Of a stretch of DNA of 64,000 nt, positions 56,864 to 57,326 are shown one piece after another. The notes below the pieces were generated by a model that did not search any database, was not told the origin of the DNA, and worked only from the letters and a program-made list of their open reading frames with translations. The stretch is taken from the NCBI RefSeq assembly GCF_009931435.1, contig NZ_CP043414.1. The stretch is one strand, 5' to 3'. The stretch's first letter is position 1. Each line of letters begins with the position of its first letter. Position numbers and translations under genes: made by a program. The DNA is from Escherichia coli. GTDB lineage: Bacteria; Pseudomonadota; Gammaproteobacteria; Enterobacterales; Enterobacteriaceae.

Positions 56864-57037
56864 TTAAAACAGTGAAAACAACAGCGCCACCGGGAAACTC
56901 ATCGGCCATGTTGCCCCCACCAGAAAGGCGCTTAAGAAACGGATGCGTTTCTTATCGTGAGAAAGAAACCAGGTGATAAGAAATGCGATTGCTGCCATAA
57001 CCGCATAAAAAACAAGCATGTGTTGATAGAGAGACAT
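56864..57037 (-). CDS. ortT: Orphan membrane toxin OrtT (TisB-related)
   Basis: Track ORF 56864-57112; start ATG 57037 (MSLYQHMLVFYAVMAAIAFLITWFLSHDKKRIRFLSAFLVGATWPMSFPVALLFSLF) gives 57 aa. Confidence 0.8.
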   Translation of the reverse strand: MSLYQHMLVFYAVMAAIAFLITWFLSHDKKRIRFLSAFLVGATWPMSFPVALLFSLF

Positions 57038-57230
57038 GTACGGGCGTCCAGCCAGATGAATAAAACGCGCGCAAATATGCGTCATTTTTTGACGTGCATC
57101 AAGTTTTTTCACCAGTTTGAGAAAAAATCATCAACAGCAACTTGCCCTTATCCATCTTCAGAATAAGTATTATTGCGGATTTTCTTAACCCGTACTATAC
57201 ACATAGGGGCAATGATAAAAGGTGGCAAAA

Positions 57231-57326
57231 ATGAATGTTTCCAGTAGAACTGTAGTACTGATAAATGTCTTTGCTGCTGTTGGTTTGTTTACTCTTATCT
57301 CTATGAGATTTGGCTGGTTTATTTGA
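57231..57326 (+). CDS. yncL: 31-aa small membrane protein YncL
   Basis: Hand-translated MNVSSRTVVLINVFAAVGLFTLISMRFGWFI with SD aaaggtgg upstream; below track cutoff. Confidence 0.6.
   Translation: MNVSSRTVVLINVFAAVGLFTLISMRFGWFI

Follow-up and report, generated by a model that had tools for sequence, protein, structure and literature searches.

A conserved FNR box over the -35 element of the antitoxin-less toxin gene ortT, divergent from yncL, in Escherichia coli

In type I toxin–antitoxin loci, such as hok/sok, ldr/rdl, ibs/sib and tisB/istR, the toxin is a small hydrophobic protein of the inner membrane, and it depolarises the cell. OrtT (YdcX) of E. coli K-12 belongs to the Pfam family of GhoT from the GhoT/GhoS type V system, and both proteins are reported as small two-helix toxins that are located in the membrane, damage it and lower ATP (PMC4344625). 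The overproduction of OrtT is toxic through membrane damage and the loss of ATP (Islam, Benedik and Wood 2015, PMC4344625). This toxicity was not neutralised by YdcY, by GhoS or by a 772-bp clone that took in the intergenic regions on both sides, and the screening of a genomic library, at about 3-fold coverage, yielded no antitoxin (PMC4344625). The same study described the stringent response and heat as inducers of ortT and found that ortT and ydcY do not form an operon, the control of ortT being ascribed to predicted sigmaE/sigmaH promoters (PMC4344625).

The divergent neighbour of ortT is yncL, which encodes a small single-helix membrane protein. According to the work of Hemm (2008, 2010), as cited in PMC12542507, YncL is induced by stress and in stationary phase, and its overproduction is cited in the same source as depolarising the membrane and condensing the nucleoid. 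Furthermore, YncL is among the proteins that RseP cleaves in vivo (PMC10470546). The Salmonella orthologue was first listed as a small RNA, STnc1110; the gene is sigmaS-dependent and its translational lacZ fusion is expressed (PMC5437024). Genomic SELEX with the RpoS holoenzyme revealed a peak within the yncL-ydcX spacer (PMC5493296). Both ortT and yncL have been reported in the literature as stress-responsive, in agreement with a first-pass annotation of the DNA studied here, in which such small membrane proteins were expected to be often stress-regulated.

The spacer between the two genes also contains one of the strongest FNR ChIP peaks among those previously without an assigned function. 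Binding of FNR in vivo, at a K-12 sequence identical to ours, was detected by ChIP-chip (Grainger et al. 2007), by ChIP-seq (Myers et al. 2013), with a peak that was retained in an hns/stpA mutant (Table S7, average 2.78), and by Federowicz et al. 2014. The target gene of this peak was called 'Indistinguishable' by Myers et al. 2013, whose Table S9 (categories 3-5) gathers FNR sites that are bound but silent. No relevant paper was found in a literature search pairing ortT with FNR.

The window, that is, the whole 64-kb stretch of E. coli DNA analysed here, carries ortT (ydcX) at 56864-57037 on the minus strand (ATG at 57037, 57 aa, stop included) and yncL at 57231-57326 on the plus strand (ATG at 57231, 31 codons plus stop). 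The divergent genes are separated by a spacer of 193 bp (57038-57230). The flanking genes are ydcY (DUF2526) and patD, and the RefSeq gene order, ydcZ-ydcY-ortT-yncL-patD, is identical in K-12 MG1655, with matching intergenic distances (193/194 bp and 85 bp). OrtT, a membrane toxin of the GhoT/OrtT family, is identical in the window to the 57-aa K-12 protein and matches Pfam PF10753 (Toxin_GhoT_OrtT) with 96.9 bits (cut-off 22.1), residues 4-57 aligning to the whole profile (positions 1-55 of 55). For YncL, the NCBIfam equivalog NF000537 gives a full-length match (72.5 bits, cut-off 35). YncL is the same 31-aa single-helix protein as K-12 YncL and Salmonella STnc1110, with the same locus, promoter and sigmaS/stress link, and differs from the K-12 protein only by the substitution F13V. 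The first-pass annotation had described a 57-aa OrtT-type toxin gene lying about 190 bp from a divergent gene for a 31-codon membrane peptide, and these matches confirm both descriptions.

The pair was already annotated and experimentally studied, and the earlier observation re-identifies known genes. There is no difference of substance between the ortT of the window and that of K-12, which are the same gene in two E. coli strains. The comparison of the FNR operator presented below is a modest addition to the published ChIP data and does not describe a new kind of system. Region 56400-57500 shows 100% identity to E. coli strain 2020CK-00188 and 95-99% identity to most other complete E. coli genomes. 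An ortT-yncL query was matched at a coverage of at least 80% in 5404-5405 of 5426 complete E. coli genomes and, among the matches listed, the RefSeq annotation of both genes is present in the matching records. In E. coli MSB1_4I (NZ_LR898874.1) the match is confined to the yncL end, at two places, which suggests a disrupted locus, and 6-8 of the matches to the query are plasmid-borne.

OrtT fits the form of its family, with about 57 aa, two hydrophobic helices and a short basic loop that is conserved in the family alignment. Its hydropathy peaks at residues 7-26 and reaches its minimum at the loop HDKKRIR, followed by a hydrophobic C-terminal half. The dN/dS of ortT is 0.070 (81 distinct sequences). 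The toxicity of the 57-aa ORF, which the first reading had put forward for checking, is borne out by the published overproduction of the identical K-12 protein (PMC4344625). Most of the other checks proposed in that reading are likewise already in the literature. The same reading had seen no cognate antitoxin gene, and the Pfam analysis agrees with it: neither of the immediate neighbours, YdcY and YncL, matches an antitoxin family. Unlike GhoT, OrtT has no GhoS-family match in its neighbours, and its control appears to be transcriptional. A longer, 82-aa version of ortT, starting at GTG 57112, was returned by the ORF tool and was rejected as an artefact: the upstream frame is open for 0 to 64 codons among the loci, and this GTG lies upstream of the mapped transcription start site (TSS).

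The conservation of the locus was counted in 80 species-level loci collected by OrtT homology. In most of the genera sampled ortT adjoins patD; yncL is located between them only in Escherichia, Salmonella, Citrobacter, Intestinirhabdus and one distant relative (64% identity), and ydcY and ydcZ flank ortT only in Escherichia. In the 27 loci where yncL was found, its ORF is always intact; 26 of them have a 31-codon gene, and the gene of the most distant species is one codon shorter (30). Variable positions are concentrated at the third position of the codon (27/31), with 9 at the first and 6 at the second, and the dN/dS is 0.089 (27 species). Judging by this pattern, YncL evolves as a protein, and both ortT and yncL are genuine genes and not chance ORFs. 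A frame antisense to yncL (57185-57349, minus strand), which corresponds to a 54-aa ORF in the window, is open in 27/27 species; we take it to be a by-product of the yncL sequence, because the substitutions follow the codon positions of the yncL frame.

The spacer was aligned across Escherichia, Citrobacter, Salmonella, Intestinirhabdus and one unclassified Enterobacteriaceae isolate. Two conserved islands flank about 70 bp that are unconserved between genera, and the mapped starts fall 6-7 nt after the -10 hexamers that had been predicted beforehand from conservation. In the rows for this interval, the Cho 2014 supplement gives TSSs in U00096.2 coordinates at 1515241(-) for yncL and 1515384(+) for ydcX; the offset from U00096.2 to NC_000913.3 is +1976, fixed by two independent published motifs. 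The yncL start corresponds to G 57208 (plus strand), 6 nt past TATACA, and leaves a 5' UTR of 23 nt (57208-57230) with a conserved ribosome-binding site, AAAGGTGG. The yncL promoter (57173-57201, plus strand) consists of a -35 TTGCGG (57173-57178), a 17-nt spacer and a -10 TATACA (57196-57201), with a C at 57195 (-13), and lies in the conserved yncL-proximal island. The sigma70 ChIP-seq peak of Myers et al. 2013, at about 57177, is placed on its -35 element.

The ortT start given in the same Cho 2014 rows corresponds to G 57066 (minus strand), 7 nt past CATATT, and the resulting leader of 29 nt (57038-57066) has a weak GGA-type ribosome-binding site. In the ortT-proximal island the sequence is AAAACTTGAT-N4-RTCAA, followed after 9-10 nt by GCATA(T)TTGCGCGCG. 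The -10 element CATATT (57074-57079, minus strand) continues into a GC-rich stretch, TGCGCGC, which reaches the TSS (57066-57079 in all); among 80 unique sequences, GCATA is 99-100% conserved and the T in the sixth position of the -10 is 100% conserved. The -35 element is CTTGAT, overlapped by an FNR box. Between the islands, the central spacer (57103-57172) is AT-rich (about 66% A+T) and unconserved between genera, and no element was detected in it. The spacer region was flagged as IHF-positive by ChIP-chip (Myers et al. 2013, Table S6), and a strict IHF consensus was sought in the spacer and not found.

Neither of the two real intergenic promoters was picked up by simple promoter and terminator scans, whose matches showed no enrichment relative to shuffled sequence. 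A sigmaE promoter (GGAACTT-N16-TCAAA), tried by eye around the conserved AACTT, was discarded because its spacing does not fit. A sigma32-like reading, with CTTGAT, 14 nt and ACGCATAT, presumably fits the ortT promoter better, when compared by eye with the consensus CCCCATnT. In ChIP data, the ortT promoter region binds the sigma70, sigmaS and sigma32 holoenzymes, with peaks that are too broad to separate the three promoters within this 600-bp region. The third of these promoters, that of ydcY (56814-56848, minus strand), has the form TTGACG-N16-TATCAT, with a TSS at 56814 (1515636 in Cho 2014) and a sigma70 ChIP peak at the ydcY start. ydcY thus has its own promoter and shares no transcript with ortT. 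The strongest ydcY 5' end in the Cho 2014 rows for this region (284 reads) sits on the A of the ydcY ATG (56778, minus strand), which suggests a leaderless or processed mRNA besides the promoter-derived start at 56814.

The FNR box, TTGATGCACGTCAA (57089-57102), is centred at -29.5 from the ortT TSS, over the -35 CTTGAT, and has one mismatch to TTGAT-N4-ATCAA. A match of this type in a single sequence is not significant alone, with 4 observed in the 64-kb window vs 3.0 expected. The significance of the box derives from its conservation, as it is found in 80/80 species loci at -54 to -60 from the ortT ATG. The consensus is matched perfectly in 38 of these loci, with one mismatch in 28 and with two in 14, against a background of 0.6 such boxes per kb. 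Conservation is complete (100%) at the half-site cores, TTGA and TCA, and only 45-74% at the four spacer positions. The box is also kept in Enterobacter, Kosakonia, Lelliottia, Leclercia, Phytobacter and Pantoea, genera without yncL, and this retention at a fixed distance from ortT indicates that its target is ortT and not yncL. Like the bound-but-silent sites of Table S9 in Myers et al. 2013, the ortT site gives a strong ChIP signal, is near-consensus and shows no change on fnr deletion in anaerobic glucose medium. However, it differs from them in that 80 species keep it at a constant distance from ortT, which argues that it is a functional FNR site. The strong ChIP peak can consequently be assigned to ortT.

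The position of the box at -29.5, over the -35 element, predicts the occlusion of the promoter by bound FNR. The only -10-like element conserved across all the genera is CATAnT, located 9-10 nt past the box. ortT and yncL are independent genes, transcribed back-to-back from separate promoters. The promoter of yncL is of the sigmaS/sigma70 type (TTGCGG-N17-TATACA, C at -13) and gives a short transcript of roughly 175 nt, ending at a hairpin common to the convergent patD. ortT, with neither an antitoxin nor an RNA lock, appears to be held in check at transcription. The explanation that we consider best, and which may equally prove right or wrong, is that this check is exerted by FNR. The promoter anatomy, the starts, the binding of FNR and the conservation of its site are observed, and the direction in which FNR acts and the two-input logic are inferred. 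In anaerobic cells, active FNR would occupy the ortT -35 and block the promoter, and OrtT would be expressed only where oxygen or nitric oxide had inactivated FNR and where the promoter also received a stress input, for example from heat shock or the stringent response.

The need for a second input would follow from the finding that fnr deletion has no effect on ortT in fermenting cells (Myers; Federowicz); no fnr-dependent derepression of ortT is reported in either data set. In support of occlusion, ydcX was up 11.85-fold in anaerobic, nitrate-grown CFT073 without hmp, norVW and nrfA, alongside cyo and sdh genes, and the authors of that study proposed that at least some of the regulatory effects may reflect the inactivation of FNR by NO. 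Federowicz et al. 2014 listed the effect of FNR at [ydcX, ydcY] as 'Activation' under nitrate respiration (Table S4). This call, made at the operon level, opposes repression unless it is indirect or driven by ydcY. Both this call and the lack of an effect of fnr deletion in fermenting cells could be reconciled with occlusion if the promoter needed a second, stress-dependent input: fnr-deleted cells, which cannot respire nitrate, would undergo no nitrosative stress, and this input would be absent.

The alternative that survives best, although we consider it doubtful, is that FNR is a class II activator under nitrate respiration, acting from the same box on a second start near 57054 (some 12 nt further downstream), for which TTTTAT (57060-57065) would be the -10; OrtT would then be a nitrate- or anaerobiosis-induced protein. 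This activation would agree with the 'Activation' call for [ydcX, ydcY] with nitrate, but the call, being at the operon level, could be indirect. With the TTTTAT hexamer of E. coli the box would be placed at -41.5 to -42.5, but this hexamer lacks the near-essential A at the second position, and the other genera have no conserved -10-like hexamer at class II spacing, CATAnT being universal. From the only start mapped for ortT in the Cho 2014 rows, the box lies at -29.5, vs -41.5 for class II; that start was mapped without reference to anaerobic growth, and a different one could operate when FNR is active. The 11.85-fold rise of ydcX in CFT073 with nitrate, in the same list as the FNR/NarL-activated fdnG, would also suit an activator. 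However, a NarL/NarP heptamer was sought by eye and none was seen, the upstream spacer is unconserved between genera and, although FNR is strongly bound in fermenting cells, fnr deletion changes nothing there.

Under the preferred reading, with FNR as a repressor on the ortT -35, it is also conceivable, and we propose it tentatively, that an FNR gate sensing oxygen and NO functionally replaces the antitoxin, OrtT needing the inactivation of FNR together with a stress sigma factor or ppGpp. OrtT would then act as a conserved depolariser of the membrane, with redox or NO stress as its trigger. Such gating of the promoter by FNR would help to explain the safe carriage of an antitoxin-less toxin, and it would link OrtT to the shifts in oxygen and nitric oxide that enterics meet in the gut and the urinary tract.

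It is very improbable that yncL, alone or together with ortT, is the target of the FNR site. The 'Indistinguishable' target call of Myers et al. 2013 would allow this assignment, and yncL is about 2-fold higher anaerobically in the strain without hns and stpA. Nevertheless, the yncL start lies 112 bp downstream of the box, the box occurs at its fixed ortT distance in the 53/80 loci in which tblastn found no credible yncL, and Federowicz et al. list yncL as N/D in both conditions.

Equally little weight can be given to the idea that YncL and OrtT work as partners, with YncL as a small protein that antagonises OrtT or acts as its co-effector and with the divergent arrangement coupling the two. 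Both are small inner-membrane proteins whose overproduction is reported to dissipate membrane potential or ATP (PMC4344625 for OrtT and, through the work it cites, PMC12542507 for YncL), but their genes have separate promoters with different inputs. The pair and its spacing of roughly 190 bp are kept in Escherichia, Salmonella, Citrobacter and Intestinirhabdus, yet most of the ortT-bearing genera have no yncL and carry unrelated genes in its place. With tblastn, at E values up to 10, no YncL relative was detected beside ortT in Enterobacter, Kosakonia, Lelliottia and others, nor was a comparable small divergent ORF found there. The pairing is therefore lineage-specific and not obligatory, which argues against YncL as a necessary partner of OrtT. 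Judging from the UTR-F primer, the 'UTR' clone made by Islam et al. begins inside yncL, and full-length YncL was never co-expressed with OrtT, but the genomic-library screen of the same study yielded no antitoxin (PMC4344625).

Antisense or overlapping regulation had also been suggested for the shared region, together with a search for an antisense sRNA in 57038-57230. The present data give no support to either. The ortT and yncL TSSs are 142 bp apart and point outward, without overlap of the 5' ends, and no further TSS between them is listed in the Cho 2014 rows for the interval. At gathering thresholds, Rfam reported nothing at the ortT-yncL locus when the 64-kb window was scanned, and a permissive scan of 56300-57700 gave only two chance-level matches, to STnc320 (16.4 bits vs 50) and to an HBV element. 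Folding of the ortT leader, with z = +0.74 vs shuffled sequences, indicated no significant structure and no translational lock. In these respects ortT differs from the type I loci, as it lacks an antisense RNA gene, a long structured leader and a translational lock, and the published antitoxin test was negative (PMC4344625). Control of ortT by an antisense or small RNA from the spacer or by overlapping divergent transcription, like that of a type I toxin–antitoxin, could find favour in a terminator-like hairpin with a T-run on the plus strand (57065-57090) and in weak plus-strand starts inside ydcY (5-6 reads in the Cho 2014 rows), but it is most unlikely given that the mapped starts diverge without overlap, the spacer centre is unconserved, the best Rfam match stays at 16.4 bits against a cut-off of 50, the ortT leader is only 29 nt and unstructured, the cloned 772-bp region with both flanks left toxicity unreduced (PMC4344625), and terminator-like matches, 3 found vs 1.0 +/- 1.2 expected, are not enriched.

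The terminator-like site at 57065-57090 coincides with the conserved ortT -10 region and is treated as incidental. The two weak starts, at about 56614 and 56711 (plus strand), are antisense to ydcY/ortT, and the Cho 2014 rows assign them to the 'yncL' transcription unit; the fragment of Islam et al. covered both of these sites and showed no antitoxin activity (PMC4344625).

The only conserved RNA structure in the locus lies between the convergent stop codons of yncL and patD, where a 13-bp perfect inverted repeat is found at 57349-57383. No U-tract accompanies this hairpin on either strand in the E. coli sequences examined. Its sequence differs in Escherichia, Citrobacter and Salmonella, and a stable stem is always kept through compensatory changes; the total predicted folding energy of the yncL-patD intergenic segments (92-107 nt) ranges from -22 to -38 kcal/mol. 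A hairpin without a U-tract agrees with the published inclusion of patD and yncL among convergent overlapping gene pairs.

Some further observations concern the ortT loci of other genera and the rest of the window. In the Enterobacter hormaechei locus (1864-2757), the patD-ortT interval holds a divergent cluster encoding two DUF1971 proteins and one DUF1869 protein, which replaces yncL. These proteins presumably resemble YeaR and YoaG. The genes yeaR and yoaG head the CFT073 nitrate-induced gene list that includes ydcX. The ortT of Pantoea has been reported as plasmid-borne, and the three Pantoea loci examined carry the FNR box. In Enterobacter, Lelliottia and Leclercia, a second conserved block, TTGTTATTA...GTGGTTAT-N3-GTAAC, is situated about 20-60 nt upstream of the FNR box. 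We take this block to resemble ArcA-type direct repeats. Finally, the only Rfam family detected in the 64-kb window at gathering thresholds is the selenocysteine insertion element SECIS_3 (83.8 bits vs a cut-off of 63), at 19912-19970 on the minus strand, which we assume to be that of fdnG from the K-12 yddG/fdnG gene order near the locus.
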